Part shown: piece by piece, positions 13,602 to 58,078 of the stretch
How positions within the stretch are numbered: the stretch's first letter is position 1
Layout: each line of letters starts with the position of its first letter
NCBI GenBank assembly: GCA_017610305.1
Contig: JAFCCJ010000001.1
Location: 1 to 62,278 of the forward strand
Reading direction: 5' to 3'
DNA length: 62,278 bases
DNA from: Candidatus Iainarchaeum sp.
GTDB taxonomy: Archaea > Iainarchaeota > Iainarchaeia > Iainarchaeales > JAFCCJ01
The notes under the pieces: generated by a model
Seen by the model: the letters and a program-made list of their open reading frames with translations, nothing else
What the model was told of the DNA's origin: nothing
Database searches by the model: none
Made by a program: the position numbers and the translations under genes

Positions 13602-13604
13602 ATC

Positions 13605-14267
13605 TTACGGGCAGCTTGTAGGATTAATTACGAAATCCTTGAGTACATATTCGTTGTTTGGCAGGTCTATTCTCAGTTCAACATCCGCAGGATCGGAGCC
13701 CAAATAAAGGGATTTTTCCTGGGTAGTAAAGACAAGTAGTTCACTATTTCCTGGTTTGATTGTGACGCTGAACTCAAATCCATCAAAGCTGTCTTCAAGC
13801 CCATCGGAATCTGAGTGGGCTGAAATCTCCCCGTCAATGACATAATCATCACTGCCATTGTTTTTCAGGTTAATGCTCTTGAGAATTGTTCCCTTAACAT
13901 TTTGCCCTTCCCAATTTGTGCTGAAACAAGCAAAGGTGTAATGGTTTATTATCCTTAAATCAGCCGCCTCTGTTGCGGGGTCCGGCTCAGGTTCCGGCTC
14001 CGGTTCCGGCTCAGGCTCTGGCTCAGGTTCTGGGTCTGGCGTAACATCTATGCCATTATCCAATGTTGCGGAATCGCCATCAATTGTAAAATCATCATCC
14101 ACCACACTTACAGTTGACCCACCATTGACGACAGGTGATGTCTCTACCCCTGTAGGGGAAGTTAACGCCAAAAATCCGACCACTCCGATTAGGAGAAATA
14201 TAACGATAAACAGCACGATTAATATTACTCCAATTCCGGTAAATGCAATAAGATACTTTGTTTCCAT
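13605..14267 (-). CDS. Membrane-anchored/secreted protein with a (Pro-Glu)n linker
   Basis: N-terminal hydrophobic helix ([29 protein letters not shown]), a [22 protein letters not shown] linker, and a C-terminal beta-rich domain ending in Cys. Confidence 0.6.
   Translation of the reverse strand: [220 protein letters not shown]
13977..14039 (-). repeat. Tandem hexanucleotide (GGYTCN)n repeat encoding PDP(EP)8DP
   Basis: Read directly: ggggtccggctcaggttccggctccggttccggctcaggctctggctcaggttctgggtctgg. Confidence 0.9.
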
Positions 14268-14307: not shown

Positions 14308-17300
14308 CTATTCGAAATAAGCGCTATAGGGCTCAACTTCTAAATCTTCAAGCCTTTTCTTATGAACCGCGGCAAGAAAGAGCTTTGCCAGCTGAATATT
14401 GGTTATCAAAGGTATTGAGTAATCAACAGCCATCCTCCTTAGCTCATACTCAACATCAATCTCAATCTGTTTGGAGGGGTCTGGCACAATTATAACCAAA
14501 TCAAGCGCTTTTTTGGACAAATAATCGCGAATATTGGGCTTTTTCTTGTCCTGCAATTTATGGAGTTTCCTAAACTCAATCCCCTGCTGCTTAAAGAATT
14601 CAACAGTATGTTCTGTTCCAAAGAAATTATATCCCTTGTCTGAAAGTTTCCTTATGTTTTTAAGCAACCTAAATCTGTCCTCATCACCGTTAACACTAAT
14701 GAAAATATTCTTTTTTGGAATCCTGAATCCGGTTGAAAGAAGGGCCTTAAGGAAAGCATCGTCAACATCCCTCCCGATACACCCGACCTCCCCTGTTGAT
14801 GCCATCTCAACCCCGGAAATAGGGTCAGCTCCCCTTAGCCTGGAAAAGGAAAATTGCGGTGCCTTAACCCCAACATGGTCCAGGTCAAGGGCATTTACTG
14901 AATTTTCATCGACCTTATTTCCCAAAATCGCAGCGGTTGCCCTAGCAATGAAATTACTTCCGGTAACTTTCGAAATGAATGGGAATGACCTCGAGGCCCT
15001 TAAATTGCACTCAATAACCTTGACCTCATTGTCCTTTGCAATGAATTGTATATTGAAAGGCCCTGTAATTTTCAGGGCATCGGCAATCTTCCTTGCGATA
15101 ACCTTTATCCTCCTCACGGTTTCCAGATAGGTTCTCTGTGGGGGCAGCACCATTGTCGCATCACCTGAGTGAATTCCCGCATTTTCAACATGTTCATTTA
15201 TCGCCCAGCAAAGGAGCTTGCCGTTTTTGGCGACCGCATCAATCTCAATTTCCCTTCCCCCCAAAATAAATTTGCTCATAACAACAGGAAATTCATTGGA
15301 TAATGCCCCGCTTGCATCAAGATATTCTTTCAATCCCTTATTGGTAAATGCCACTTTCATCGCCTCCCCGCTAAGGACATAACTTGGCCTTACTAGGACG
15401 GGAAACTCAACCTTCTTTGCAAAACTTATTGCGCCCTTTTCAGAGGTAAGTTCCTTCCATTCAGGCTGGTCGATTTCCAGTGAATCAAGAAGTGCCGAAA
15501 ATTTATGCCTGTCCTCGGCATTGTCAATGCTGACAGGGCTTGTCCCAAGCACTTTCATTCCGGTCTCCTCGCACTTCATCGCAAGGTTATTTGGAATTTG
15601 CCCGCCCATGGAAATTATTATCCCTTTCGGGTTTTCCAGTTCATAAATATCCGCAACCGATTCAAGGCTCAACTCCTCAAAATAAAGCCTGTCACAAATA
15701 TCATAGTCTGTTGAAACTGTTTCAGGGTTGTAGTTAACCATAATTGTTTCATAGGAGGACTTTTTCAGTTCCTCAATTGCATTAACACAGCACCAGTCAA
15801 ACTCAACACTTGAGCCTATGCAATATGCCCCGCTTCCAAGAACCATCACCTTTTTGTTTTGGTTAAATTCAACATCATTCTCAATTCCATTATATGTGAG
15901 ATAGAGGTAATTGGTTTTTGCAGGAAATTCCGCGGCAAGGGTATCAATTTGTTTCACAACAGGAACCACACCCAATTCTTTCCTCCTTTTTCTCATCTCA
16001 ATCTCCCCCTTTTCCCCCATAAGCATCGCCAACTGCTTATCGGAAAAGCCGGCCTGTTTCACACTGAGCATAAGTTCCTTTGAAATGGTTTTTGATGTGA
16101 ATTTCTTTATTTCTATCTCCAATTCAACCACGCGCTTAAGCTTGAAAAGAAACCATTTGTCTATTCTGGTGAGTTCATAAATCCGGTCCACCGATTCCCC
16201 CTTTGCAAGGGAATTAATCACCGCAAAAATCCTTTTATCGGTTGGATTTTTCAGGGAATGAATCAGTTCCTTGAAATGGATTTTATTCCCAACCAACCCA
16301 TACATCCCTATCTGAAGCATCCTTATCGCCTTTTGCAGTGCCTCCTCAAAACTCCTGCCTATCGCCATTACCTCCCCCACACTTTTCATTTCCGGGCCTA
16401 TTTTCTTTGAGACATTCCTGAATTTTCCCAGGTCCCATCTCGGAATTTTAACCACAACATAATCCAGCGCAGGCTCAAAACAGGCCTTTGTTTTTTTGGT
16501 GATTGAATTTTCAAGTTCAAGAAGGGAGAGGCCCAATGCGAGTTTGCTTGCCACAAATGCTAACGGATATCCTGTTGCCTTTGAGGCAAGGGCACTGCTC
16601 CTTGAAAGCCTTGCATTAACTTCTATTACCCTGTAATCCTCTGACTTTGGGTCAAGGGCAAACTGGATATTGCATTCCCCAATAATTCCAAGATGACGAA
16701 TTACTTTTATGGAAATTTCCCTCAATTTGTGGTACTCATGGTTGTCCAGAGTCTGAGAGGGGGCAATTACAATGCTCTCCCCTGTGTGAATTCCAAGGGG
16801 ATCGAAATTTTCCATATTGCAAACGGTGATGCAGTTGTCCTTTGAGTCCCTCACAACCTCATACTCAATTTCCTTCCATCCCCAGAGATATTCTTCCACA
16901 AGAATTTGCGGGGAATGGGTGAAAACCTTTGCGCAAGATTCCTTAAGTTCCTTCTCGCTCTTGCAAACCCCTGAACCCTTTCCACCCAATGCAAAGGCGG
17001 CCCTTATAAGAACAGGATAGCCGATTTTCTTAGCCGCCTCTATGGCGTCCTTCTCATTCCTCACAGGAAAACTTTTCGGGACATTGACCCCTATTCCTAC
17101 CAGTTCCTTGTTGAACAATTCCCTGTCCTCGGTTTTCCTTATTGCCTCAACATGGGTCCCCAAAACCCCCACATTATGTTTCTTTAAAATTCCCTTGTCA
17201 TGCAGCTCAAGGCCACAATTCAGTGCGGTTTGCCCGCCAAAAGAAAGCAAAATTCCATCAGGCTTTTCCTTTTCAATCACCCTCTCCACAAAATAGGGAG

Positions 17301-17505
17301 TTATGGGAACAAAGTAAACCTCATCGGCGAAATCTTTTGATGTTTGGACTGTGGCAATATTTGGATTAACCACAATAACCTCAATCCCCTCTTCCTTTAG
17401 CGACTTTATCGCCTGGCTCCCACTGTAATCAAACTCACCGGCCTGGCCTATTTTCAATGCCCCTGAACCGAGGAGAAGCACTTTTTTTGGTTTTTTTACC
17501 ATCAT
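14308..17505 (-). CDS. carB: Carbamoyl-phosphate synthase large subunit
   Basis: 1065 aa with two ATP-grasp halves (SFGGQTALNC; second half MGGQIPNN) and a C-terminal MGS-like domain. Confidence 0.96.
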   Translation of the reverse strand: MMVKKPKKVLLLGSGALKIGQAGEFDYSGSQAIKSLKEEGIEVIVVNPNIATVQTSKDFADEVYFVPITPYFVERVIEKEKPDGILLSFGGQTALNCGLELHDKGILKKHNVGVLGTHVEAIRKTEDRELFNKELVGIGVNVPKSFPVRNEKDAIEAAKKIGYPVLIRAAFALGGKGSGVCKSEKELKESCAKVFTHSPQILVEEYLWGWKEIEYEVVRDSKDNCITVCNMENFDPLGIHTGESIVIAPSQTLDNHEYHKLREISIKVIRHLGIIGECNIQFALDPKSEDYRVIEVNARLSRSSALASKATGYPLAFVASKLALGLSLLELENSITKKTKACFEPALDYVVVKIPRWDLGKFRNVSKKIGPEMKSVGEVMAIGRSFEEALQKAIRMLQIGMYGLVGNKIHFKELIHSLKNPTDKRIFAVINSLAKGESVDRIYELTRIDKWFLFKLKRVVELEIEIKKFTSKTISKELMLSVKQAGFSDKQLAMLMGEKGEIEMRKRRKELGVVPVVKQIDTLAAEFPAKTNYLYLTYNGIENDVEFNQNKKVMVLGSGAYCIGSSVEFDWCCVNAIEELKKSSYETIMVNYNPETVSTDYDICDRLYFEELSLESVADIYELENPKGIIISMGGQIPNNLAMKCEETGMKVLGTSPVSIDNAEDRHKFSALLDSLEIDQPEWKELTSEKGAISFAKKVEFPVLVRPSYVLSGEAMKVAFTNKGLKEYLDASGALSNEFPVVMSKFILGGREIEIDAVAKNGKLLCWAINEHVENAGIHSGDATMVLPPQRTYLETVRRIKVIARKIADALKITGPFNIQFIAKDNEVKVIECNLRASRSFPFISKVTGSNFIARATAAILGNKVDENSVNALDLDHVGVKAPQFSFSRLRGADPISGVEMASTGEVGCIGRDVDDAFLKALLSTGFRIPKKNIFISVNGDEDRFRLLKNIRKLSDKGYNFFGTEHTVEFFKQQGIEFRKLHKLQDKKKPNIRDYLSKKALDLVIIVPDPSKQIEIDVEYELRRMAVDYSIPLITNIQLAKLFLAAVHKKRLEDLEVEPYSAYFE

Positions 17506-30117: not shown

Positions 30118-30321
30118 TTAAGCATCATCTTCATAATACTGGTCAAACTCGCTTTCTTCCTCGAGGATTTGCTGCTTTTCGGTTTTGACCTTTAACCTTC
30201 CGCCCTGAACTACAACCATTAGGCCAATAGTGCATTCAGGGCATTCAAGATCGTCCCCTTCATCATACTCATTGATACTTAAATCAAAGTATTCCTTGCA
30301 CTCAGGACAGATTACTTTCAT
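30118..30321 (-). CDS. LysW/ArgW-like zinc-ribbon protein with an acidic C-terminal tail (candidate amino-group carrier / ligase substrate)
   Basis: CPEC-x19-CPEC ribbon, then GLMVVVQGGRLKV, then the acidic tail EEESEFDQYYEDDA. The ATG at 30321 (MKVICPEC) is preferred over the track start at 30339. Confidence 0.5.
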   Translation of the reverse strand: MKVICPECKEYFDLSINEYDEGDDLECPECTIGLMVVVQGGRLKVKTEKQQILEEESEFDQYYEDDA

Positions 30322-30418
30322 TATTCCCACCAAAAACACCTGTCAAACAATATTATTTACCGTACCCGTAAAATTTATAAAGTTAATTTTTCGGGCAGAA
30401 TTAGCATTTTGGCCCTGC

Positions 30419-33409: not shown

Positions 33410-33826
33410 ATGCGTAAAGTAATGGCTTTTGGGGCATTTGATATTCTCCATCCCGGGCACCTATATTATTTTAGGGAAGCGAAGAAATTGGGGGATGAAC
33501 TGATTGTTGTGGTTGCAACCGATTCCAATATTGAGAAATTGAAGGGTTCTGACCCCCTAAATGACCAGGAACAAAGGTTGGAAGTTGTGAAGGCGGTGAA
33601 ATCTGTTGATGATGCCATGCTTGGGAGTGAGGAGAATATGTTTGACATTATTTCTGAACTTAAGCCAGGGATTATTGCCCTGGGTTATGACCAAAAAGTT
33701 GATGGGAAAGGACTGAGGGCGTTCCTTGAAAAAAATAAAATTAATTCCGAAATTGTGAGAATTGGCGCATTTGAGGCTGAAAGGCATAAGAGTTCGCTGA
33801 TAAAGAAAAAGTTGGGAATTAGTTAA
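33410..33826 (+). CDS. ribL: FAD synthase (RibL-type cytidylyltransferase-family nucleotidyltransferase)
   Basis: GAFDILHPGH (HxGH) motif. ~138 aa, the archaeal RibL size and layout. Confidence 0.8.
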   Translation: MRKVMAFGAFDILHPGHLYYFREAKKLGDELIVVVATDSNIEKLKGSDPLNDQEQRLEVVKAVKSVDDAMLGSEENMFDIISELKPGIIALGYDQKVDGKGLRAFLEKNKINSEIVRIGAFEAERHKSSLIKKKLGIS

Positions 33827-34395
33827 ACAACCATCTTCTTTTCCTTCGCCCTTTTGTAAATGAACTTGAGAAATATTTTCGCAAACCTCGGGCCAAAGTA
33901 TTTCACCATTATTCCAGGGGTGAAATTCACTTCCACAACCAATGCCTCGTTATCTGACCTTATGAGGTCAACCGCACAAAGTTCAGCCCCCGCAATTGTT
34001 GCGGAATTGAGCACAATATCTTTATACTTCTCGGGAAAATCAACTAACCTGGGCCTTCCTCCCCTTGAAACATTTGACCTTAAATCATCTTCCCCGGCAA
34101 TCCTTCTCACAGCATATACTTCCTTTCCAACAACATAACATCTCAAATCCTCCCTGCCACTTTCCACAAATTTCTGAAGAAGGATAAATTCCTTGAAAAC
34201 CTGCAAAGTGTCAAGTATTGGGGTGAATTCCTGCTTGGAACTGGCAAACATCACACCCTTTCCCCCAAACCCGCTCAGCATTTTAACCACAATGGGATAA
34301 CCCATCTTTTCGGCAATCATAACCGCAGGAACTGTCCCCACGCAAAGCGCGGAATCAGGAATTGGCACCTTTATTTCGCTCAAAGCTTTTGACAT
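33823..34395 (-). CDS. RimK/LysX-type ATP-grasp ligase, catalytic (C-terminal) fragment
   Basis: Gly-rich loop VVKMLSGFGGKGV, RSNVSRGG and the Mg-site VVEVNFTPG. Same reading frame as 34420..34704, separated from it only by a TAG and 8 sense codons. Confidence 0.8.
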   Translation of the reverse strand: MSKALSEIKVPIPDSALCVGTVPAVMIAEKMGYPIVVKMLSGFGGKGVMFASSKQEFTPILDTLQVFKEFILLQKFVESGREDLRCYVVGKEVYAVRRIAGEDDLRSNVSRGGRPRLVDFPEKYKDIVLNSATIAGAELCAVDLIRSDNEALVVEVNFTPGIMVKYFGPRFAKIFLKFIYKRAKEKKMVV

Positions 34396-34419
34396 ATAAT
34401 ATTTGTGGTTGCTTAACTG

Positions 34420-34704
34420 CTAGGCCTCTGAACTTGTGGGGAGGTAAACCTCTGAACTCTGGAGGATGTCAAGAACCACTTCCCCGAAAACAAAATCCTC
34501 CGCAAATAATCTGGGGAGACATGCGTCGAATTTAGTTAAGTCGGTGTTTTTGTAGTAAAGCATGGGTTTTTTGCCGTTTAACTCAACCCGGATAGAAGTT
34601 AAGGGGACCAAAAGAACAGTTTCAAAGAGCCTCTTTCCCTCGGCAACAAAATACTGGCTTGCCTTGCCCAGGCTTTTGGAACCGCTTATTATCAGCAGCC
34701 TCAT
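34420..34704 (-). CDS. RimK/LysX-type ATP-grasp ligase, pre-ATP-grasp (N-terminal) fragment ending at an in-frame TAG
   Basis: 94-aa pre-ATP-grasp-like domain (MRLLIISG...). Its ATG overlaps the stop of the upstream gene (ATGA). Confidence 0.7.
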   Translation of the reverse strand: MRLLIISGSKSLGKASQYFVAEGKRLFETVLLVPLTSIRVELNGKKPMLYYKNTDLTKFDACLPRLFAEDFVFGEVVLDILQSSEVYLPTSSEA

Positions 34705-35540
34705 TCATTCCCCTTCTCATAGTAGTGTGATGCTATCATTGCCTCTATGCTCTTGCCCAAGGGTTTGTTGAAACGCTCAAAATCAATCACCGGATTGACG
34801 CCAATAACCCTTCCTGAAATCAGGTTCACAACCGCAATATCAAAGCCTATCGCCCTGCATGCCCGTAACGCGGTTTCCTTATCCTCACTTCCCAGAGAGG
34901 TTGAGATTAATTTTTCGGCATGCTCGAACTTATCCAGATTCCACTTTCTCTTCAAGCCCACAATTTCCTTTCCAACCACAATGCAGTAATTAAGGTCATC
35001 CTGAAAATACTCCTGAATCATCACGGCATCAATCTTTGATTTGAAGCTTGTGGAAACTGATTTTAGGTTCCTTTCCGACTCCACAACAATCTGCTGCATC
35101 TTCTTTTGCCCAACAAAAGTCTTGAAAACAAGCGGAAATTTGAATCCGTTTGAGGCCTGGCCTATAAGTTCAATTGAGGGAATTATGGTTGTTTTTGATA
35201 TGGGAATTTCCTTGCTTGCCAGAACTGAAAAAAGAAAGGGCTTGTTTGAGGAAATGTAATAACTCTCAGGCTTGAGCTGGCAGTAAATGCCTTTTTCAGT
35301 GAGCTCATCGAGGAAGGGCTCAACAAACTGCGTAAACTGCGGGCCTGCCTCAAGGTAAACTGAATCATATTTCCTGAAATTTATTTTGCCAATAACAATT
35401 TTTGTAAAATTGTCAGCAGTAAATAGGCCAATCTTATTTATCTTGATAAATGGAGCATTTTCAAACCCCTTATCAAGAAGGGCATTCTTAAGGCGTGCCA
35501 AATCTGGAGATTTTTCTTCGCCGATGATTACACAATTCAT
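34701..35540 (-). CDS. RimK-like ATP-grasp-fold protein with degenerate catalytic motifs
   Basis: RimK-like length and N-terminal domain. The Gly-rich loop is replaced (VFKTFVGQKKMQQ) and the E-x-N Mg site reads GVNPV. Confidence 0.65.
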   Translation of the reverse strand: MNCVIIGEEKSPDLARLKNALLDKGFENAPFIKINKIGLFTADNFTKIVIGKINFRKYDSVYLEAGPQFTQFVEPFLDELTEKGIYCQLKPESYYISSNKPFLFSVLASKEIPISKTTIIPSIELIGQASNGFKFPLVFKTFVGQKKMQQIVVESERNLKSVSTSFKSKIDAVMIQEYFQDDLNYCIVVGKEIVGLKRKWNLDKFEHAEKLISTSLGSEDKETALRACRAIGFDIAVVNLISGRVIGVNPVIDFERFNKPLGKSIEAMIASHYYEKGNE

Positions 35541-35558
35541 AAAACCAATCCGGTTTAT

Positions 35559-37088
35559 TCAGAGGATTTTTTTTGCCTTTTTGTCAGGCTTCCAAATCCT
35601 CTTCAGGCGCTTTTCCCCCTCAAGCGCGTTGAAAACATGTTCAGAAAGCAATTCATTTATTGTCTCGTTCTTCCTTATCAGCTTCCTCAGATATCTTTCG
35701 AAAGATTTGCTAAGTTCCTTATAGGAGGAAACATCTGAGTAAATCAGCCCTTCAGAAATTCTCCAATGGGCGGAACTGCCTTTCATCGCAAATACCAAAT
35801 AACCTCGTTTTTTGTCAATCTCGCTCATCGCATCTTCCAAAAGCCTGAAATCGACAAGATAAACTCCGGCTGTTGACTTGCTTGGGTCCATTATCACAAG
35901 TTCATCTTCCTCAATACCGACACAAAGCACATAATGGCCCCGCCCTGTTGATGTCTTAAACAACGCAGGCTTGTTAAACCACAGGATTAATAGTGCCCCT
36001 TCCGCTAACCATGTTTTCAGTTCCTCCTTTAAATCATTGATTTCATCATACCTAACCAAGACCCCTTTGGCCTGGTTGTTTGTTGCCTTTAAAACCGCGG
36101 CAATTAATTTCTTGGGCCCTGTTCCGCCAGGCACCTTGGTATTTGCAAACTTCCCTATTTCCTCCTGGGTGGTATCAAAGCCAAAGAAGGAAAGCATCAT
36201 GGAGGCGGAAGCGGGTCCGCAATAGGCGGGAATCTGGGCGACAAAATTAGACCTTATATTTTCCAGGCGAAGGATGTCCTGCTTTGTCCTTTTGATGTAA
36301 ATCCTTTCATTAATTAATTCGCTGCTTGGTATGAGAAGATTAAAGCCTGTTGGGAGGCGCAACAAAACCCCCTGGCTTGTCATTCCAATCACTTCCCCTG
36401 CATCATCCTTTACCTTAATCATTTGTCCCGGCTTGATGAGTTTTCTTTCGATATAAATTCCCGCGAAGAAATTCGCAAGAAGGTCTTTTGAAACATAATA
36501 AAGCAGGGCAACACTCAAAAGGACAAATCCGTAGGTGATTGCAATCAATATTTGGTCAATAAACGGCACACTCATGTTTACGAGATTAAGGGAAACGCTG
36601 AAAAGTATGAGAAACAGGAAGACCTTTACAATCACAAGTATGTTGTTGAACACCCCTACTGAAATTCCGGCCTCATCAAGGTATTCATCAAACCCAATTC
36701 TTAAAAGCGCTGTTCGCAGTATGTCGATGAGAAGATTTATCAGGATAAATCCAACAAACATGAGGAGGAGAAGGCTGATTATGTTTGGGCTGATATTCAG
36801 CAGGCCGATGAATATGTCCTGCGCGGCATTGAAGCCAAGGAAGTTCAGGGCCAGAATTATTGAAAGGAAGAAGATGAACCATTCAAGCATTCTCTGGAAG
36901 GAGCGTATTGTTTTTCCTGAACCTGTCAGGAAATTCCTGCCAAAAAAGTTCATTGCCCTGCCTAAAATCTTTGCCACAATAATGCCTAGGAAAATGGCAC
37001 CTATCGCAAGAACCAGCTGCTCAACTGCGGGGTTCCCCAATACCTGGGTGTAATCATTCAGATTGAACAGTGCATCGAAATCTACCAT
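35559..37088 (-). CDS. Membrane protein fusing an MscS-like channel core to a C39-like (papain-fold) cysteine peptidase domain
   Basis: ~5 TM segments. MscS TM3/beta signature LANFFAGIYIERKLIKPGQMIKV..GEVIGMT..GVLLRLPTGFNLLIPSSELI. Then QIPAYCGPASASMML (Gln285/Cys290) and GRGHYVLCVGIEEDELVIMDP (His385). Confidence 0.7.
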   Translation of the reverse strand: MVDFDALFNLNDYTQVLGNPAVEQLVLAIGAIFLGIIVAKILGRAMNFFGRNFLTGSGKTIRSFQRMLEWFIFFLSIILALNFLGFNAAQDIFIGLLNISPNIISLLLLMFVGFILINLLIDILRTALLRIGFDEYLDEAGISVGVFNNILVIVKVFLFLILFSVSLNLVNMSVPFIDQILIAITYGFVLLSVALLYYVSKDLLANFFAGIYIERKLIKPGQMIKVKDDAGEVIGMTSQGVLLRLPTGFNLLIPSSELINERIYIKRTKQDILRLENIRSNFVAQIPAYCGPASASMMLSFFGFDTTQEEIGKFANTKVPGGTGPKKLIAAVLKATNNQAKGVLVRYDEINDLKEELKTWLAEGALLILWFNKPALFKTSTGRGHYVLCVGIEEDELVIMDPSKSTAGVYLVDFRLLEDAMSEIDKKRGYLVFAMKGSSAHWRISEGLIYSDVSSYKELSKSFERYLRKLIRKNETINELLSEHVFNALEGEKRLKRIWKPDKKAKKIL

Positions 37089-37107
37089 TTAATCACATTA
37101 AATGATT

Positions 37108-37126
37108 GTCTTTATTAATATTTATT
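37108..37126. promoter_or_regulatory. AT-rich divergent promoter candidate (TATA-like on both strands) in the 52-bp spacer
   Basis: gtcTTTATTAATATTTATTac lies 15-33 nt upstream of the + ATG (37141) and 20-38 nt upstream of the - ATG (37088). This suggests leaderless transcripts in both directions. Confidence 0.3.
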
Positions 37127-37140
37127 ACTTACTATCCTTA

Positions 37141-37953
37141 ATGAAACTCCTAATTCTTTCTGTGGAGACACAATGGGAAATTAACCGGATTCGTGAAGAG
37201 GCCGAAAAAAAAGGCCATTTGGTTAGTGAGAAAAAGCCCTCGGAATTTGATGAAAAAGAACTTGATGATTTTGACGCAGTCCTTTTTCGTGCTATAAAGG
37301 GAGAGGGGAAAAGGGCAAAGGAAATTGCCGTAAAAGCCAAGAAAAGGGGAATTACTGTTATTGACCGGAAATTGGGAATGGGAAAAGCGGTGACAAAACT
37401 CGCAATTTACTCTCAAATGAAAAAAGCAGGATACTATGTTCCGAAAACTATGCCACTAAATAAGGCTGATTTGGGGAAATTGAAGGAATTCCCGCAGGGG
37501 GAGATTGTTGTGAAATCAACAAGGGGAAAAAGGGGGCAGGATTTATACAAATGCGATAGGGATAATCTAAAAAACCTGATTCCAAAACTGAAAGAAGATG
37601 AAAGATACATTGTTCAGGAATTTGTCAGGATTGAAAAGGAGTACAGGGTTTTTGTTATAGGAGGAATGGTTTACGGCACCTATTCCAAACAATCCAGGGA
37701 CTGGAGGCACAATGTTTCTTTGGGGGCGAAAGTTGTTGAGGAGGAACTAGGGGAGAATGAGGAAATGGTTGCGTTGAAAGCGTTTGAACTGAGCGGGAAT
37801 GACATTGCGGGAATTGATTTGGCCGTCACTCCGAAGGGTTTGTTTGTTCTCGAGGTGAATCGCAGTCCCGGCTTCAAGGGCTTTGAGGAAGCAACTGGGA
37901 AAAACGCGGCGGGGGAAATTGTGGATTTTATTGAGGAGCAAGTTGGGGAATGA
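37141..37953 (+). CDS. RimK/LysX-type ATP-grasp ligase
   Basis: Motifs VVKSTRGKRGQD, WRHNVSLGA and LEVNRSPG. The ATG at 37141 (MKLLILS) is preferred over the track start at 37102. Confidence 0.8.
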   Translation: MKLLILSVETQWEINRIREEAEKKGHLVSEKKPSEFDEKELDDFDAVLFRAIKGEGKRAKEIAVKAKKRGITVIDRKLGMGKAVTKLAIYSQMKKAGYYVPKTMPLNKADLGKLKEFPQGEIVVKSTRGKRGQDLYKCDRDNLKNLIPKLKEDERYIVQEFVRIEKEYRVFVIGGMVYGTYSKQSRDWRHNVSLGAKVVEEELGENEEMVALKAFELSGNDIAGIDLAVTPKGLFVLEVNRSPGFKGFEEATGKNAAGEIVDFIEEQVGE

Positions 37954-37957
37954 GGAA

Positions 37958-39148
37958 TTAATTATTTTCTTTTTTCGACAATTCAATAAGAAGTTTTTTT
38001 GTCTTTTTCAGTTCATTTATCGTGATTGATTCTTCAGGGGAATGAGCATGCTCCCCTCCAGGCCCAAAACTTACTGTCAAAACTCCAATCCTTGCAATAA
38101 ACCTTCCATCAGTCCCCCCCAAATCACAGGCCAGTTCGGCCTTCTTTCTGAAAACCTTTTTAACGACTCCGGCAAATTCCTTCACAAATTCGTGGTCCTT
38201 ATTAACAAAGTAACCATTGGTCCCTGTCATTGTAATCCTTCCCTTGATTTTATGCTTTTTCATCAGCTTTTTCGCAAATCTCCTGAATTCATTCATAACT
38301 TTCTTTACCCTCTCCTCAGGAAGTGCGCGGATGTCAAAACCAACAACAAAGCCTGAAGGGATTATGTTGGATTTCATTCCTGAACGTACAATAGTGATAT
38401 TGAACCTGCCCCAGACTTTCTTATGCGGGGCAAAGCTCGGGGCATTAATGATTGAAACTGCCTTTGACCTTTTCTTTTCATATTCTTTTAAGGATTCCAA
38501 AAACGGCAGAACCTTGTGGACAATATTAGGATGCCTGAAAGGGTATGCCGCATGCCCCCCTATACTTTTGAAATTGATTCTGCCCCTTATCACTCCACTA
38601 CATCCAATCCCGACATGATGGGAAGTGGAATCCATAACTAAACATACACATTTTTCAGGATTGAATTTCTTGCCATGCTTTTCGGCAAGAAATTTGATTC
38701 CATGGCCCCCTCCTATTTCCTCATCGCAGGAAACTACAAGTATTATATTTTTTTTACAATCCATTTCCTTTAACTCGCGCATTGCCCCCATTGATATGGC
38801 AATCGCCCCCTTATCATCGGCAACACCAAGGCCCATCAACTTATTTCCTTCCCTTCTCATCTTATTGGGTTTTCTTTTCCATGCCTCTCGGGAGAGAACA
38901 ACATCAAAGTGGGTTGCAATAACCAGATTTTCCTTTGCCCCGCGGTCCATCGTAATCAGCAAATTTGGCCTTGGCTTTTTGTCCTTTGCATTTGACCTTA
39001 GAACCTCGACCTCAAAACCCAACGAGCGTGCTTCCTTTGCGATAAAATCAGTTATTGCCACATAATTTGACTTGGTCTGGACATCTGTATTGAAATCAAC
39101 CAGCTTGCTTAGGAGGGAAAGTTCATACCTTAATGAATCTTTTTTCAT
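37958..39148 (-). CDS. M20-family metallohydrolase (ArgE/DapE/LysK-like deacylase), paralog 1
   Basis: Motifs ATHFDVV, GVADDKGA and SCDEEIGG. 396 aa. Confidence 0.85.
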   Translation of the reverse strand: MKKDSLRYELSLLSKLVDFNTDVQTKSNYVAITDFIAKEARSLGFEVEVLRSNAKDKKPRPNLLITMDRGAKENLVIATHFDVVLSREAWKRKPNKMRREGNKLMGLGVADDKGAIAISMGAMRELKEMDCKKNIILVVSCDEEIGGGHGIKFLAEKHGKKFNPEKCVCLVMDSTSHHVGIGCSGVIRGRINFKSIGGHAAYPFRHPNIVHKVLPFLESLKEYEKKRSKAVSIINAPSFAPHKKVWGRFNITIVRSGMKSNIIPSGFVVGFDIRALPEERVKKVMNEFRRFAKKLMKKHKIKGRITMTGTNGYFVNKDHEFVKEFAGVVKKVFRKKAELACDLGGTDGRFIARIGVLTVSFGPGGEHAHSPEESITINELKKTKKLLIELSKKENN

Positions 39149-39159
39149 TTCAACACACC

Positions 39160-40488
39160 CTAAAAATATTTCTCAAGCAGACTCTCGGTTCTCCCCACGC
39201 TTCTTAAGTAATTCTCGGCGAATTTAACCGAAATTTCCCCTGCAAATTCAGGGGTAATTCCTTTGGCAGGATTAAATCCCTTGGATTTTGAATATGATAA
39301 AATTTCATCAGAGAGGCTTTTTTCCTCACTAACTATATTGAAGACAGGTTTTGCAATCTGCATTTTATTTTTCGGGATGCAGGTTTTCGCAAATGAGAAA
39401 AAACGTTTTACATAGTCCTTTGCACTCTTGCTTTCGAAACCGTTTTTTGCCGACCTATACTGGAGATTGTTCCTTACATAAGTGTGCGGGGGGATATAAA
39501 GGATATTTCCCTCCCTTTTGAATGGCTCTTCCAAACCGATATCAGAGGGGACCACCTGCAAAAAATTGGTTTGGATTTCCTCCAGAACATAATTCAAAAC
39601 AGCAGTCATGCCCATAACATTATCCAGGTTATTCATGTCAATGCCCCTTTGCTCAAGGGTATCATGCTTGTTCACACGAACAGGGCCCCAAAACAAGTCC
39701 AATTTTGATTTATATGGCCAGTTCCTATTCGGATTCATGCCGTGCTTTTTCATAATTCCCTTCCAGATAATGTTTCTTCGGTTAATTGAATGCCTTAGGT
39801 CTGCAAGGGTTTGTTTATAGGGGGGAAGGGCGCCAAAAATCGGGAGCTTGGAGTATAATCCTGCCCCATATTTTAACTTTCTCCCTCCGCGATAAACCAG
39901 GGCGCGGGAGTCCTTTGCAAGATGCCCCAATTCATAGAATGGGGAGGAGGCCATAACTGTAAGCAAAACAGGATCGGCCGCAATCAGGAAATTGTAGGCA
40001 TTCATCATCGAACTTTTGAGTTTGGAATTTATCAGCCTTTTAAGTACAAGTTTCTCCTTGTCCATTACCCCTTTCGGCATTGTGAAATGAAAGTGAAAAC
40101 CAACGCACTTGCCCGCGAGCCTGAATTTATTCGCGCCGAAAATTTTCTTTTTTATCCCATATCCATTGCCGCTGCGCATATCGGTTTTATTCTTCCCGGG
40201 ATAGCAGCTAAGCGGGAGCAACAGGGTATCATTCTTTTCCGCGGCCTCAATCAATGCCCTTACAGCTGACAGCATTTCATTTATTGTTTCATTGGGTTCA
40301 GGCTTTGGGTAATTATTCAGCTCAACCATGCCTTTGGAACATTCCTTTGCAAGTTGCGCCTTTGGGTCAATCTTAACGGCATCCTTAAGGATTTTATCGG
40401 CATTGAAAACCAGCTTTCCGGATTCATTAATCAGGAAGTACTCAAATTCCAGGCCTGAATGAAAAATTTTGAGGGGCTTTTTTGCCAT
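39160..40488 (-). CDS. GCS2-family carboxylate-amine ligase (gamma-glutamyl-type ligase)
   Basis: N-terminal GLEFEYFLINESG pattern and the overall length and layout of glutamate-cysteine ligase family 2 / YbdK-like enzymes. Confidence 0.7.
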   Translation of the reverse strand: MAKKPLKIFHSGLEFEYFLINESGKLVFNADKILKDAVKIDPKAQLAKECSKGMVELNNYPKPEPNETINEMLSAVRALIEAAEKNDTLLLPLSCYPGKNKTDMRSGNGYGIKKKIFGANKFRLAGKCVGFHFHFTMPKGVMDKEKLVLKRLINSKLKSSMMNAYNFLIAADPVLLTVMASSPFYELGHLAKDSRALVYRGGRKLKYGAGLYSKLPIFGALPPYKQTLADLRHSINRRNIIWKGIMKKHGMNPNRNWPYKSKLDLFWGPVRVNKHDTLEQRGIDMNNLDNVMGMTAVLNYVLEEIQTNFLQVVPSDIGLEEPFKREGNILYIPPHTYVRNNLQYRSAKNGFESKSAKDYVKRFFSFAKTCIPKNKMQIAKPVFNIVSEEKSLSDEILSYSKSKGFNPAKGITPEFAGEISVKFAENYLRSVGRTESLLEKYF

Positions 40489-40492
40489 TGAT

Positions 40493-41659
40493 TCACCTTA
40501 CAAGTTCCTTAACCAATTCTTTTGTCTTTCTAAGTTCATAAATAGATATTGATTCTTCCGGGGCATGGGGATTCTTTCCCCCGGGAGTAATTGCGATTGC
40601 GGGAATTCCCAATTTTGCGATGAACCTGCCATCAACCGCCCCCAACTCAACAACCTTCTCCAATTTCCTTCCCAAAATTTTCTCCGACTTTTTTGCAACT
40701 TCCTCCACATAAGGATTATCTTTCTCAATCACATAACCGTCGCTCCCTTTGATGGTTATTCTTCCGCGCAGATTGTGTTTTTTTAATTTTCCCGCCACAA
40801 ATGTCTTGAATTCTTTAATTATCTCCTTGATATTTTCTTCAGGAAGCGCGCGGATATCAAAACCAATCCGAAGTGAGCTTGGGATGATGTTTGTTTTATG
40901 CCCGGCATTAAGCATTGTCACCGAAAACCGCCCCCATACATTCTTGTGCAATGAGCCAGATGGGGCCGGCGCCCATGATTTTTTCTTTTCCCTGAGTTTT
41001 CCATATTTAAGCAAATCATCCATAAAAGGAATCGCATCATGGACAACGTTGCGTGTCTTGTGCGGATAACCAGCATGCCCCTGCTCCCCCTTAAGGTGAA
41101 TGTGCCCCATTGCGGTTCCGCTGCATCCGATTCCAACATTCATAAAATCCTTGTCCATCACAATGCAGAAATCGGAGCTTAAATCTTCCCTATTGTTCAC
41201 AATTAATTTTCTCAGGCCGTTTTCTCCCCCCACTTCCTCATCACAGGCAACAAGGAGTTTAACATTCCTGCGACAATTTCCTTTTTTTAGTTCCTTAAGC
41301 GCGCCCATTGCCGCAGCTATTGCCCCCTTGTCATCACAGGCCCCCCTTCCTATAAGCAGTTTCCCTTTTCTTCGCAGCCTGAATGGATCTGATTTCCATC
41401 CTTCCCCTGCAGGCACAACATCATAATGGGTTGCAAGAAGAAGGGTTTCTTTGGCCTTTTTGTTCAGAGTAATAAAAAGATTGGAGCAGAACTTTTCCTC
41501 AGAGGATTTGTATCTGATGGTTTTTGCCCTTAATCCCAACTTTTTTGCCTCTTTTTTCAGCAATTGCACAATTTTTCCATAATTGGTTTTTTTCTCAGAA
41601 TCCGTGTTCAAGGCGACCAATTTGCGAAGTAAGTCGATTTCGTAACGCATTTCGTCCAT
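40493..41659 (-). CDS. M20-family metallohydrolase (ArgE/DapE/LysK-like deacylase), paralog 2
   Basis: Motifs ATHYDVVP, GACDDKGA and ACDEEVGG. Clearly paralogous to 37958..39148. Confidence 0.85.
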   Translation of the reverse strand: MDEMRYEIDLLRKLVALNTDSEKKTNYGKIVQLLKKEAKKLGLRAKTIRYKSSEEKFCSNLFITLNKKAKETLLLATHYDVVPAGEGWKSDPFRLRRKGKLLIGRGACDDKGAIAAAMGALKELKKGNCRRNVKLLVACDEEVGGENGLRKLIVNNREDLSSDFCIVMDKDFMNVGIGCSGTAMGHIHLKGEQGHAGYPHKTRNVVHDAIPFMDDLLKYGKLREKKKSWAPAPSGSLHKNVWGRFSVTMLNAGHKTNIIPSSLRIGFDIRALPEENIKEIIKEFKTFVAGKLKKHNLRGRITIKGSDGYVIEKDNPYVEEVAKKSEKILGRKLEKVVELGAVDGRFIAKLGIPAIAITPGGKNPHAPEESISIYELRKTKELVKELVR

Positions 41660-54928: not shown

Positions 54929-56005
54929 ATGAGAAAACTTTTACTTTTGTTGGGGGCAGTTCTTCTAATTTCCTTATTTTCTAATGTTGTTTCCCAGGCA
55001 GATATGGTTATGATGCAACAATACTTTACAGTAAGTTCAACAGACTCTAGCAAGGATACTGGCGATGAGGTTTGTATCAGTATGGGAAGAATTTGTGTCG
55101 GTTACACTGACACCAGTTCGAGAACATGCCAATCAGTCCACCCTGATGCCGCAGTCACTACCAGCACAAGCGGGGACTTGTCAGGAGTTTATTGCGATGG
55201 TTCCCCGCAGACGGGAATTTGTGCAACAAAAACAAACACCTGCCACACCTGCCCTGAATGCACTAATACAGTGGATTGTTCAACCCCAATTGGAAATTTG
55301 TACAGGGAGATGTATGTTGAGTGCAGCAGCCAGATAATAAATCCGCCTCAGCAAGATTTCTTTTCAATGATTGCCGAATTTATTTCCAATTTATTAGAAA
55401 GTTTGTTTTCCGGCGGATTCATAGCACAAACCAATGTGATCCAGCAAACTCAGACAATTCAGATAGGGCCCTATCCTGACAGATGGGCATGTGACTTTTA
55501 CCAGATTCCATTTCCAGGAGTCAATAAAAAAATGGTTTCCTGCCCTTATGAAACTCCGGGGGCGGCAATTAATGACGCCGCAAATGCCTACTGCAGGACC
55601 GCTATGGCATCACCCTGGGCAGAAGCAGAGATGTGCAATGAGCAAGGGGTAATTGTCTGTACCCATCCCTGTGAAACTGCTCCCGCACATATAATTCCCT
55701 CTAGATGCGCGTTTGACATTGACAGGCCAAGGGGAAATCAGGCAGCACCATTAAACTGGTGCCCGCCAAAGGAAACGCCATCATACCCTTCAGGGGAAGG
55801 CAGGCCAGATAATTGCTTTGATACTGCCTACCAGGCACACAGGGGATATAATGAGAATCAAGCCTTGTGGGATGGTTATATGGCGGATACTGATGGTGTT
55901 TGCCAGTCTGAATATGGGAGAGGTGCGCCAAGCCCGTGTGCCCATATAGTCCAGTTAAGCACTAGCGGAAATCCCTACTATTTGTGCTGGTATAATAACC
56001 CATAA
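54929..56005 (+). CDS. Secreted Cys-rich protein
   Basis: Signal peptide MRKLLLLLGAVLLISLF and >25 Cys. The ATG at 54929 is preferred over the TTG at 54917. Confidence 0.6.
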   Translation: MRKLLLLLGAVLLISLFSNVVSQADMVMMQQYFTVSSTDSSKDTGDEVCISMGRICVGYTDTSSRTCQSVHPDAAVTTSTSGDLSGVYCDGSPQTGICATKTNTCHTCPECTNTVDCSTPIGNLYREMYVECSSQIINPPQQDFFSMIAEFISNLLESLFSGGFIAQTNVIQQTQTIQIGPYPDRWACDFYQIPFPGVNKKMVSCPYETPGAAINDAANAYCRTAMASPWAEAEMCNEQGVIVCTHPCETAPAHIIPSRCAFDIDRPRGNQAAPLNWCPPKETPSYPSGEGRPDNCFDTAYQAHRGYNENQALWDGYMADTDGVCQSEYGRGAPSPCAHIVQLSTSGNPYYLCWYNNP

Positions 56006-56111
56006 ATGGCTGAAATTAATTTCCCTATTTTTCTTCTTAAAATATCTTTATATACAAATTGAATTAGACAGAGACGGAAATTATATAAATATCAAAGGAA
56101 TTACACATATC

Positions 56112-56450
56112 ATGCTTTACAGAATTGTTGGGCTATTTGTGGTGCTGGTTGTTATATCGGGCTGCGCCCTTCCAAGCTATGAGGCAATCTCCGAAGAAAA
56201 AGAACAGTTTATTGGCACTTGGAATTCAACGGATAGTCAGATTTTAATAATCAACGCAGATGGTTCCGGCAATTATTACGGATTTGGCAGGAAAATTTCT
56301 GGTGGAGCAATAACCATAACGAAAAGTGAACTCACTATCGAACTTTTTAACGAAACCTTTTCAAAGACATTTAAGATCACAAAACCACCTTACAATGAAG
56401 GTGGAGAAACCAAAATGAAACTCAATCACTCGATTTTTACTAAGCAATAA
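56112..56450 (+). CDS. Small lipoprotein
   Basis: Lipobox VISGC. 112 aa. Confidence 0.55.
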   Translation: MLYRIVGLFVVLVVISGCALPSYEAISEEKEQFIGTWNSTDSQILIINADGSGNYYGFGRKISGGAITITKSELTIELFNETFSKTFKITKPPYNEGGETKMKLNHSIFTKQ

Positions 56451-56451
56451 T

Positions 56452-56736
56452 TCAGCCACCAATCTTAACCAGTTTCACAGTGAAGATTAATTCCTTTCCT
56501 GCTAATTCGCCCGAATTATATCCTTCCCCTGCAGGGACAATTATTTCCTTCTCAGTTCCCTCTTCCATTCCATTGACTCCCTCATCGAAATGCTTCAGAA
56601 GCTGGCCATCGCCAATTGTAAAACTAAGCGGCTCACTTCCTTCGCTGCTGTCGAATACTGAACCATCTTGTAGTTTGCCCGTATAATGGACCGCTACTTT
56701 ATCTCCTGTTTTTGCAATGTTTCCCATATTTTTCAC
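56452..56736 (-). CDS. FKBP-type peptidyl-prolyl cis-trans isomerase (short form)
   Basis: GDKVAVHYTGKLQDGSVFDSS...PLSFTIGDGQLLKHFDEGVNGM. Confidence 0.88.
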   Translation of the reverse strand: MKNMGNIAKTGDKVAVHYTGKLQDGSVFDSSEGSEPLSFTIGDGQLLKHFDEGVNGMEEGTEKEIIVPAGEGYNSGELAGKELIFTVKLVKIGG

Positions 56737-56759
56737 CTCTTATATTAATCTGTTAAATT

Positions 56760-56773
56760 AAGCGCAGGGGACG
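56760..56773. repeat. Direct repeat copy 1 (AAGCGCAGGGGACG), identical to the tRNA-Ser 3' end plus 3 nt of trailer
   Basis: Exact 14-nt match to 57912..57925. The two copies bracket only the Fic gene. Confidence 0.7.
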
Positions 56774-56842
56774 TGCTGCGGGTAACAAGTTCTTAGCATC
56801 CCAAATGTTTCAGTCTGTTATTACTATGTGCTAAGTCATATA

Positions 56843-57832
56843 TTAGATTTTGCTTTCAATTCTCTTATGTTTTATTTGTTTGATGAATGATTTATGGCAG
56901 AATTTAACAAAGTGTTTTTCGTTTTTTGTTTCAACTGATTTAATCAATGCCTTAAAGTAATCTGAGGTCTCTTTTGAGATATTTAAAATCGGATATCCTG
57001 CGTCTTCAAGTATTTTATTGAACAGTAATCTGCAGATTCTTTTGTTTCCGTCCTTGAACGGGTGAATTAAGTAGATTTTTAAATGAACTAATGCAGCCAA
57101 TTCTAATGGATAAATATTTTTGTTTTCATTGAACCATTCAAAGAATTTTTTGTATTCTGATTTGACTTTTGCGGGGGTTGGAGGCCTGTATTTTATTTCT
57201 TCACTTTGAAAAGTTACTGGATTGAATTTAGCAATAATTCTTTGATCGTCCCTTAGTTGGCCGGGACTTTTGTCTTCAAATGAAGTCATTATTATTCCAT
57301 GTAATTTCAAAACGTCTTTTTCATTTAATTTAAGTTTAGGTAAATAATCTAATCCGGTGATCATTGCACTTGAAATAATTACTTTTTTATCAAAAGTATA
57401 TTCTCCTTTCTTTTTTTGAAGAATTGTGAAAGCTGTTTGAACATCAGAGAAATTAACATCAACCCCTTCAGTTCTTAAAGTAGTGTAAACAAAATCCAAA
57501 ACAGATTTTTTATTGAATTCATATTTTTTTGTTTTACTTAATTTATTGAATCTTTCCAAAAAATTGTCTTTAATTCTTTCAACTTCACTTAATTCTTTTC
57601 TTGAAAGAAAAGAAAACTTAAATTCATTTAATCTTTCATCATAAAGTGAACTCAAAACTTTTTTTGTTTTGTCCTCTAATTCTTTTTCTTTTTTTTTCAA
57701 TTCTTTTTTTGGGGGCTTTTTTCTACCTAAAGAAATAGAAATCTTTTTCCATCTGTTTTTTCCTATGCGTATATTTTTGTCCAGATAGTAATATATTTTT
57801 TTATCTATTTTCCTTTCAACTACACTACTCAT
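56843..57832 (-). CDS. Fic/DOC-family protein
   Basis: Fic motif HPFKDGNKRICR. Visibly more AT-rich than its neighbours. The ATG at 57832 is preferred over the TTG at 57850. Confidence 0.88.
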   Translation of the reverse strand: MSSVVERKIDKKIYYYLDKNIRIGKNRWKKISISLGRKKPPKKELKKKEKELEDKTKKVLSSLYDERLNEFKFSFLSRKELSEVERIKDNFLERFNKLSKTKKYEFNKKSVLDFVYTTLRTEGVDVNFSDVQTAFTILQKKKGEYTFDKKVIISSAMITGLDYLPKLKLNEKDVLKLHGIIMTSFEDKSPGQLRDDQRIIAKFNPVTFQSEEIKYRPPTPAKVKSEYKKFFEWFNENKNIYPLELAALVHLKIYLIHPFKDGNKRICRLLFNKILEDAGYPILNISKETSDYFKALIKSVETKNEKHFVKFCHKSFIKQIKHKRIESKI

Positions 57833-57911
57833 AATAATTACCACCACCAAAATAATTAAAAAGAGTGGTGTTAAATTATAACCACCTAATAGAAAAATAT
57901 TTGTGGTGTTA

Positions 57912-57925
57912 AAGCGCAGGGGACG
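57912..57925. repeat. Direct repeat copy 2 (overlaps the tRNA-Ser 3' end)
   Basis: AAGCGCAGGGGACG. 57915..57925 are the last 11 nt of the tRNA. Confidence 0.7.
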
Positions 57926-58078
57926 AGATTCGAACTCGCGCGAGCAAAGCTCAACGGCTTACTACAACCGAAAATATGTATTAATAATGGTCCGAAGGAC
58001 CATTGACATACTTCGGTACAACCGCTCGAAAGCGGTTTTTTAGCAGGCCGCCGCGTTAGGCCACTCCGCCACCCCTGC
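57915..58078 (-). tRNA. tRNA-Ser (anticodon GCT) with an ~81-nt intron at the canonical 37/38 position
   Basis: Hand-folded. Acceptor GCAGGGG/CCCCTGC, anticodon stem GCGGC/GCCGT with loop CTGCTA|intron|A, a variable arm, and T-arm GCGAG-TTCGAAT-CTCGT. Exons are 38 + 45 nt. Confidence 0.85.
57960..58040 (-). other. tRNA-Ser intron (boundaries +/- 1-2 nt because of flanking A runs)
   Basis: Contains hairpin AACCGC-TTTCGA-GCGGTT and a long stem ACCGAAGTATGT...ACATATTTTCGGT enclosing ATGGTCC-TTCG-GGACCAT. Confidence 0.7.

Follow-up and report, generated by a model that had tools for sequence, protein, structure and literature searches.

What could hold together seven neighbouring genes for enzymes that form or cleave amide bonds, one of them joined to a channel-like membrane protein? 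The question is raised by a block at positions 33823-41659 of a 62,278-nucleotide stretch of Candidatus Iainarchaeum sp. (contig JAFCCJ010000001.1; the whole stretch is called the window), in which an initial annotation had described three ATP-grasp ligase genes (here graspA, graspB and graspC), a GCS2-type ligase, two M20 hydrolases and a fusion of MscS-like and C39-like domains. All seven genes were recovered in the open reading frame (ORF) listing, and their domain assignments were upheld by Pfam and NCBIfam profile searches. That they represent an uncharacterised, linked set of enzymes is supported: homologs are co-localised in many related genomes, the ligases fall outside the RimK-S6, LysX, MptN and CofF equivalogs, and the MscS and C39-like calls hold. 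The block is not a single unit, as first described. Its linked part is an obligatory core, a three-gene operon of the fusion protein, a catalytically dead RimK paralog (graspB) and an active RimK-type ligase (graspC), and the GCS2 ligase belongs with an amidohydrolase to a separate, more widespread module. Our preferred but tentative reading, in which our confidence is limited, is that the genes may form a cytoplasmic system that makes and trims a glutamate-type acidic peptide and is joined to a valve or tension sensor of the MscS type, by analogy with the bacterial RimABK and RloABC systems.

The comparison set consisted of about 40 DPANN genomes with 41 distinct fusion loci. The gene order fusion, graspB, graspC was found in 32 of these loci at 32-94% identity, with graspB always placed between the fusion gene and graspC where the core is present. 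In the window all three genes lie on the minus strand: the fusion gene (35559-37088) is separated by 18 nt from graspB (34701-35540), which overlaps graspC (33823-34704) at 34701-34704 in the ATGA coupling seen earlier. According to the record titles, the fusion is carried by Iainarchaeota, Micrarchaeota, Nanohaloarchaea and Woesearchaeota metagenome-assembled genomes (MAGs); the best homologs of the window proteins are from Diapherotrites/Iainarchaeota MAGs, which together with an intron-bearing tRNA marks the window as archaeal, and exact-match look-ups with the window proteins gave no return. Nine loci with the core are of nanohaloarchaeal type (five are titled Nanohaloarchaea or Nanosalina), at 32-38% identity, and in these nine the IMPDH, cytidylyltransferase and TyrRS genes that are syntenic with the block across Iainarchaeota were not found near the core. 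This recurrence, including Nanohaloarchaea without the neighbours of the Iainarchaeota type, indicates that the clustering is more than chance. Since DPANN genomes are small, and the system is kept from freshwater Iainarchaeota to hypersaline Nanohaloarchaea, it is likely to be physiologically important.

Both halves of the fusion protein were found above the Pfam gathering thresholds (GA), with 22.2 bits for MS_channel_2nd (GA 20.2), 47 bits for Peptidase_C39_2 (PF13529, GA 24) and 25.2 bits for Peptidase_C39 (PF03412, GA 22). The Phytochelatin model (PF05023) reached 24.7 bits, just under its GA of 24.9, and covered only residues 336-429; the domains precomputed for the fusion homologs P0015 and P0020 include it as well. 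When a profile of 25 fusion proteins was compared with the PDB, E. coli MscS was matched at residues 105-176, which correspond to transmembrane helix 3b (TM3b) and the beta-domain (E=4.7e-9), and the best non-MscS match was Alr0975 of Nostoc at 1e-3. The hidden Markov model alignment to MscS comprises residues 24-98 (TM1-TM2) and 111-176 (TM3b and beta-domain), so that by Pfam, profile and TM1-TM2 alignment the protein has the TM3b and beta-domain region characteristic of MscS. Between the two aligned stretches the fusion carries about 105 extra residues, read from the AlphaFold2 (AF2) model (predicted local distance difference test score, pLDDT, 77) as two probable additional transmembrane helices and a TM3a-like helix. 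The order is thus TM1-TM2, insert, TM3b and beta-domain, papain-fold domain at about residues 268-440 and a conserved basic helical tail, and the alignment to MscS together with the model would place the papain-fold domain after the beta-domain, at the position of the MscS alpha-beta domain.

A Foldseek search with the same model retrieved the pseudomurein endoisopeptidase PeiR (5.6e-8), Alr0975 (2.5e-7), the C39 domains of ComA and PCAT1 (about 1e-5) and MscS (about 1e-5), and the sequence identity of PeiR and Alr0975 to the peptidase domain is just 18-19%. The MscS and papain/C39-like assignments thus stand. The leader-peptide C39 type needs revision, phytochelatin synthase and PeiR being at least as close; the protein has an Alr0975-like fold though it misses the Phytochelatin gathering score, and it passes those for C39 and C39_2. 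All 42 family members examined share Q285, C290, H385 and D401 without exception, as is expected of a catalytically intact papain-fold domain. The N-terminal loop of the fusion is acidic and the segment past the last transmembrane helix is basic, and, the MscS beta-domain being cytoplasmic, this charge pattern suggests that the peptidase domain should be cytoplasmic as well. Neither an enzyme-fused MscS nor an MscS-peptidase fusion was described in the literature searched, and the full-length family is small, with 51 clusters at 90% identity and, in a set of 1.84 billion representatives, about 60 at 50% identity. The tail past the papain domain (35559-35765, about residues 441-509) has strongly conserved motifs (LSKSFERYL..., LLSEH and IWKP), is basic in 25 of 25 aligned homologs (+3 to +10) and matched no family; it may be a docking site.

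The three ligases belong to the RimK family. Pfam RimK (PF08443) scores were 96.5 bits for graspC, 42.7 for graspB and 91.5 for graspA, with Rimk_N at 35.8 bits on the N-terminal fragment of graspC and matches to GSH-S_ATP on the grasp proteins. The family model TIGR00768 (rimK_fam, cutoff 143.4) was reached by graspA (145.3), was missed by graspB (52.7) and gave 165.4, 148.7 and only 121.4 for the graspC orthologs of loci L006, L001 and L005, respectively. In the PDB sequence search all three proteins were nearest to solved RimK structures, ahead of LysX/ArgX, the best match of graspA being Pseudomonas RimK (1.3e-17). The grasp proteins scored below every equivalog cutoff, which excludes the corresponding identities at this level: 62-135 bits for RimK-S6 (NF007764, cutoff 331), 25-127 for LysX/ArgX (TIGR02144, cutoff 275.6), 35-124 for MptN (NF040720, cutoff 350) and 20-78 for CofF (TIGR04443, cutoff 300). 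The concern that these ligases could belong to the cofactor-glutamylating MptN and CofF clades is therefore not borne out by the equivalog scores.

Whether the ligases can be active was judged by aligning sequences of graspA (17), graspB (32) and graspC (34) with E. coli RimK, which is 100% identical to 5ZCT and whose numbering is used here. The ATP lysines, the glycine-rich loop and the Mg ligands D248, E260 and N262 are present in 34 of 34 graspC and 17 of 17 graspA sequences. Counting all the ATP, Mg and acyl-phosphate positions checked, together with R64 and R189, graspC retains each in 33-34 of its 34 sequences, and in graspA K100, K141, Q177, E178, R189, N213, D248, E260, N262 and R64 are kept in 16-17 of 17, suggesting that both proteins are catalytically competent. 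In RimK, R189 is the site for the C-terminal carboxylate of the acceptor and R64 that for the incoming glutamate (PMC10375531). Both glutamate-site arginines are absent from graspB, in whose 32 sequences the glycine loop, R211, N213, D248 (now K/R), E260 and N262 are lost as well, the positions of E260 and N262 being variable, and K100, Q177 and E178 are mostly retained. The degenerate glycine loop and Mg site noticed earlier in graspB of the window are thus a property of its whole family, and the family-wide loss of Mg, acyl-phosphate and substrate-arginine residues points to a conserved pseudoenzyme that is, by these residues, catalytically dead.

Some further features of the ligases were inspected. 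The C-terminal residue of graspB is Glu in 13 of 31 sequences, including that of the window (...KGNE, 34701-34706) and most nanohaloarchaeal-type members (for instance ...GDDE, ...NEDE and ...EDSE), and this C-terminus could be an acceptor for graspC. Gene fusions of graspB and graspC, which might have been taken as evidence of a heterodimer, were not found among 14 graspB homologs, all of 278-313 aa, and that line of evidence was dropped. Net charge was also discarded as a sign of poly-Glu binding: the graspA family has a mean of +17 and graspA of the window only +3, and the two M20 proteins and the GCS2 protein of the block are likewise strongly basic (+25 to +31), which makes the charge uninformative.

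The in-frame TAG noted earlier in graspC is present at 34420-34422 and divides the gene into an N-terminal ORF fragment (34420-34704, minus strand) and a C-terminal one (33823-34395, minus strand). A recoding of this codon, for example as pyrrolysine, is ruled out. The codon at this site is TAT (Tyr) in the closest relative, which is 94% identical (L005), and TTC (Phe) in L006, and graspC orthologs elsewhere are uninterrupted and 292-295 aa long; TAG terminates 9 of the 55 long ORFs of the window and is thus an ordinary stop codon here. The TAG is a recent one-base nonsense change or an error of sequence or assembly. As a core ligase carries it, this genome may have an impaired system, one divided into two parts or a mis-assembly at that base.

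Two further components accompany the core in Iainarchaeota and Micrarchaeota, a second ligase of the active type, graspA, and one metallo-amidohydrolase, the M20 gene being duplicated in the window. graspA is found either divergently upstream, as in the window (37141-37953, plus strand; alternative upstream ATG at 37102), or directly behind graspC. In the window it is separated from the fusion gene by the 52-bp AT-rich divergent spacer described before, which was read from the sequence (37089-37140) and is presumed to hold the putative promoters of both genes. By coordinates it converges on M20_a (37958-39148), which is preceded on the same minus strand by the GCS2-like ligase (39160-40488) and M20_b (40493-41659). 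The short gaps reported between these, 4 nt from M20_b to GCS2 (40489-40492) and 11 nt from GCS2 to M20_a (39149-39159), were confirmed, and the G+C content is level throughout the block.

Both M20 proteins match Peptidase_M20 (101.8 bits for M20_b and 96.1 for M20_a) and M20_dimer, and they are paralogs of 46% identity. They are metallo-amidohydrolases of the ArgE/DapE/carboxypeptidase type: the ArgE/DapE subfamily model TIGR01910 (cutoff 217.6) gave 203.6 for M20_b and 194.3 for M20_a, all DapE and ArgE equivalog models of NCBIfam stayed under cutoff for both, and the best PDB match of M20_b was DapE (1.3e-30). The position of M20_a beside graspA is held by its orthologs in L005, L006, L008, L009 and L079, the M20 gene lying past graspA in the window, L005, L006, L008 and L009. 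In L003 an M20 gene stands directly behind graspC, in the slot that is occupied in other loci by FGase (PF05013), which overlaps the stop of graspC by 4 nt in L017 and L028 and has the same slot in L015, L019 and L026; in six loci an M29 gene is found 131-358 bp upstream on the opposite strand. Counted from the tblastn table, a hydrolase of one of these three families lies within 4 kb in 16 of the 18 loci with adequate flanks. The exchange by lineage is read as a probable non-orthologous displacement, and the displacement of one family by another at the core argues for a shared substrate.

The GCS2-like protein is weakly matched by Pfam GCS2 (22.1 bits, GA 21), in the N-terminal part only, and 22 of 40 homologs match the same model, the best at 3.7e-12. 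It had no PDB sequence match. Its AF2 model (pLDDT 94) is closest in Foldseek to YbdK (1r8g, E=1.9e-12, TM-score 0.73-0.78), with plant gamma-Glu-Cys ligase and E. coli GshA also matched, and it is far under the cutoffs of the NCBIfam YbdK models, which makes it a distinct subfamily. The family is frequent in Woesearchaeota and Nanoarchaeota, and of the 55 metagenome loci that have flanks, 20 show FGase adjoining GCS2, in most cases immediately upstream and in the same orientation; a few loci have a circularly permuted ATP-grasp gene nearby. Beside the fusion core GCS2 was found only in some Iainarchaeota, in at least three arrangements (window/L079, L001/L154 and L008/L080), and by tblastn it was not found beside the core in the majority of loci, among them all those of nanohaloarchaeal type and the Micrarchaeota-titled L014 and L028. 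The fact that the same hydrolase families partner the core and the GCS2 module suggests that their products are related. GCS2-FGase pairs were seen in Woesearchaeota/Nanoarchaeota at L077 (8001-10398), L078 (5394-9344), where a GSP_synth/circularly permuted ATP-grasp gene also adjoins the pair, and L085 (526-7311), where the pair occurs twice in tandem.

How might these parts work together? In the scheme that we prefer, graspC and graspA would extend a carboxylate with glutamate-type residues at the expense of ATP and would thereby yield a short acidic peptide, an oligo-alpha-glutamate or an N-acyl/X-Glu compound like those of RimK and RIMKLA/B. The non-catalytic partner graspB could serve as scaffold for the active ligase, as substrate holder or as tether to the basic tail of the fusion. 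The papain-fold domain would then cleave or transfer the peptide at the membrane, and an exo-acting amidohydrolase (M20, M29 or FGase) may reduce the fragments to free amino acids. As the peptidase forms part of a tension sensor or valve of the MscS type, the turnover of this anionic solute, or its release, would probably be linked to the osmotic state. Of the two possibilities offered by the initial annotation, the second appears to fit best, namely that a small peptide or osmolyte of acidic character is processed by the channel-peptidase fusion.

The first of the two nearest functional parallels to the scheme is RimK/RimB of the RimABK system of E. coli and Pseudomonas, which makes and trims poly-alpha-Glu. 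RimK enzymes are the closest solved relatives of the DPANN ligases, the catalytic residues with R64 and R189 are shared with graspA and graspC, and in both cases the ligase comes with a peptidase that would break down what the ligase makes. The differences are that the RimK-S6 equivalog score is far from reached and that, to our knowledge, archaea lack the bS6 target; further, the DPANN peptidase is papain-fold and membrane-fused whereas RimB is a soluble retropepsin, and the DPANN set has an obligatory dead RimK paralog and a graspC without the arginine belt of RimK.

The second parallel is RloABC of Pseudomonas and Vibrio, which consists of the RimK-like RloC, the retropepsin RloA and the membrane protein RloB, in which seven transmembrane helices are combined with a transglutaminase domain that is inactive. 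The protease of this system cleaves poly-Glu, and its phenotype is hypo-osmotic (PMC11957051). Common to both are one operon with a RimK-like ligase, a polytopic membrane protein with a transglutaminase/papain-type domain and an acidic-peptide peptidase, and the osmotic-stress phenotype of Rlo parallels the MscS module of the DPANN fusion. Transglutaminase domains are themselves of the papain-like fold. In the DPANN protein, however, the papain domain is intact and predicted to be cytoplasmic, whereas RloB has an inactive domain with a predicted periplasmic location; the DPANN membrane part resembles MscS and not the seven-helix part of RloB, the exopeptidase is M20, M29 or FGase in place of the retropepsin, and the set is archaeal only. 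Pfam gave no domains of the RloABC/RimABK type for the block or for the loci related to it, and the resemblance is functional and not one of membership.

Several observations weigh against the proposed scheme. The proposed link to osmotic state derives solely from domain identity and analogy. The RimK arginine belt (R96, R98 and R102), which guides long poly-Glu chains, is not retained in graspC, and this loss makes long polymers doubtful. The MscS pore helix TM3a of the fusion is unalignable, with bulky residues there in the window sequence, and the membrane part of this putative channel may serve merely as anchor or sensor. Seven loci of Woesearchaeota type have the fusion without an adjacent ligase, save for a convergent RimK gene in L039. 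Finally, the adjacency of GCS2 is limited to some Iainarchaeota in which IMPDH and TyrRS are syntenic too, and inherited synteny may explain part of it.

An alternative that we consider unlikely is the tagging of protein C-termini, in which the RimK-type ligases would add Glu or other residues to a carrier or target and the papain domain with M20, M29 or FGase would remove the tag or release the product. RimK tags bS6 and LysX/ArgX act on the C-terminus of LysW, and a RimK-family ligase together with an M20 hydrolase and an acidic-tailed Zn-ribbon in the wider neighbourhood is reminiscent of the LysW/LysX/ArgX/LysK pathway. The Zn-ribbon protein of the window (30118-30339, 73 aa, two CPxC pairs and an acidic tail), earlier taken for a LysW-like carrier, did not withstand closer inspection: it scored 16 bits for Zn_ribbon_LysW (GA 27), the PDB sequence search gave RING fingers and no LysW chain, and it was found near the core only in four Iainarchaeota loci, past TyrRS. 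As had been noted, the block holds no kinase, reductase or aminotransferase gene (no LysZ, LysY or LysJ) in the ORF listing, and the LysX cutoff of 275.6 is missed by the ligases and those of the DapE/ArgE models, to which they are closest, by the M20 proteins; bS6 is no candidate target in archaea. More in favour of tagging is a different small Zn-ribbon ORF, which lies close behind graspA in seven loci, L001 (14130-14378, its start overlapping the end of graspA), L002, L014, L016, L018, L020 and L021. This ORF is present when graspA comes after graspC, has 82-93 aa in six loci and 51 aa in L021, and combines CxxC...CxxC with a Lys/Glu-rich tail. The family has no homolog in the window, however, and its C-termini are basic and variable. 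The C-terminal Glu found in many graspB sequences would make graspB itself a possible acceptor.

A bolder form of our preferred reading is that the fusion is a tension-sensing MscS-type oligomer with a cage of active papain domains, in which membrane stretch controls cleavage or release of the RimK-made oligo-glutamate-type peptide and graspB docks the ligase on the tail of the channel. In this specific form we consider it rather improbable. If true, the number of anions could be adjusted within seconds by polymerising and depolymerising, or peptide could be passed outward, which would represent the first mechanosensitive channel with a built-in enzyme, an enzyme-coupled member of that channel family and, for ultra-small archaea, a novel way of buffering osmotic change. 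Glutamate is among the small solutes released by channels of the MscS type, and members with added domains include MscK, the glutamate exporter MscCG and bCNG. The DPANN fusion shares TM1-TM2, TM3b and the beta-domain with this family and differs by its papain-fold domain at the position of the alpha-beta domain, the extra residues before TM3b and the unalignable pore helix.

It is decidedly improbable, in our view, that the block is a thiol-peptide system of the glutathione/phytochelatin kind, with GCS2 making gamma-Glu-Cys, a grasp protein adding the C-terminal residue as GshB does and the phytochelatin synthase-like domain transpeptidating or trimming at the membrane. The near-threshold Phytochelatin match of the fusion, the Phytochelatin domain of two of its homologs, the position of Alr0975 as best non-MscS profile match and second-best fold match, the structural proximity of the GCS2-like protein to YbdK and gamma-Glu-Cys ligases and the GSH-S_ATP matches are all in line with such a role. 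PeiR and Alr0975 act on non-ribosomal peptides, Alr0975 forming an acyl-enzyme with glutathione, and they are the best structural matches to the fusion peptidase domain, with the low identity noted above; neither is channel-fused nor linked to RimK ligases. However, GCS2 is not beside the core in most loci, the grasp proteins score far higher for RimK than for GshB, and the similarities to phytochelatin synthase and C39 are comparable in strength, which implies that they mainly report the shared papain fold.

We give very little credence to a canonical C39 role, in which the fusion would cleave the double-glycine leader of a ribosomal peptide, perhaps after modification by the ATP-grasp ligases, with exit of the peptide via the channel. 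The C39 and C39_2 scores and the Foldseek matches to ComA and PCAT1 speak for it, and these exporters share with the fusion the Q/C/H/D site of a papain-fold, cytoplasmic peptidase domain that is fused to a membrane conduit. In the DPANN protein, however, the partner is MscS-like and not an ABC transporter, none of which is present in the window cluster or in the loci related to it, and the peptidase is C-terminal to the membrane part; the ligases are RimK-type. The core of the window has neither a precursor-peptide gene nor room for one in its 18-nt gap, ATGA overlap and 52-bp spacer, and when ORFs of at least 45 aa were clustered across the loci, the sole small families shared with the window were opposite-strand shadow ORFs.

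That the seven genes are unrelated housekeeping enzymes kept by inherited Iainarchaeota gene order, as the synteny with IMPDH, TyrRS and the cytidylyltransferase gene and the wider distribution of GCS2 itself might suggest, is scarcely credible, as the core persists in nanohaloarchaeal-type loci where such synteny was not found, three unrelated hydrolase families swap at the core with some translationally coupled, and graspA and GCS2 switch side and strand yet remain adjacent.

Two broader explanations were also tried and rejected. A search with PADLOC gave zero matches and offers nothing for a role in anti-phage defence, and a general association of C39_2-like proteins with RimK does not hold, the stand-alone relatives of the papain domain, which are mostly bacterial (many from the candidate phyla radiation), being without grasp neighbours.

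Overall, amidoligase-peptidase systems are known as a class and it is the architecture of the DPANN set that is unusual, with an MscS-type protein carrying a seemingly active cysteine peptidase, an obligatory RimK pseudoenzyme and interchangeable M20, M29 or FGase hydrolases. The literature searched held nothing relevant on RimK in DPANN archaea or on the present cluster. If our preferred reading of a membrane-attached system for acidic peptides is true, RimK-type non-ribosomal peptide chemistry would be extended to archaea, and it could be explained what the bacterial RloABC-type systems share with the DPANN set. Testing the prediction would cost little, since the proteins concerned are small and either soluble or expressible.

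Other genes were observed around the core in single lineages. In L029 (13189-14229, minus strand) and seven other nanohaloarchaeal-type loci a conserved gene for a P-loop protein of about 340 aa (weak MobB match, 25.9 bits) faces the end of the core operon in convergent orientation, and genes that by eye are ribosomal protein S6e-like and eIF2-gamma-like lie upstream in loci of this type. L028 has a convergent RimK-like gene of 350 aa behind FGase (8479-9531, minus strand), and L024 has two copies of graspA (9023-9838 and 13191-14021), one on each side of the core. In L003, from a groundwater Iainarchaeum, the immediate neighbours of the cluster (190-3439) are a gene for a canonical MscS and a pair of genes for sucrose-phosphate synthase and phosphatase, enzymes of compatible-solute synthesis.

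Elsewhere in the window a long co-directional tryptophan/shikimate operon (44-13601, plus strand) codes for TrpG, TrpD, a TrpC::TrpF fusion, a metallo-beta-lactamase-fold protein, a TrpB-like protein, TrpA, AroA, AroB and AroC, and is adjoined by the carbamoyl-phosphate synthase large subunit (14308-17505, minus strand); together these genes represent a biosynthetic capacity above the DPANN norm. A 164-nt Rfam tRNA match at 57915-58078 (minus strand) was missed by ARAGORN and implies an intron, and beside it lies the stretch of lowest G+C content of the window (0.327, 56000-58000).

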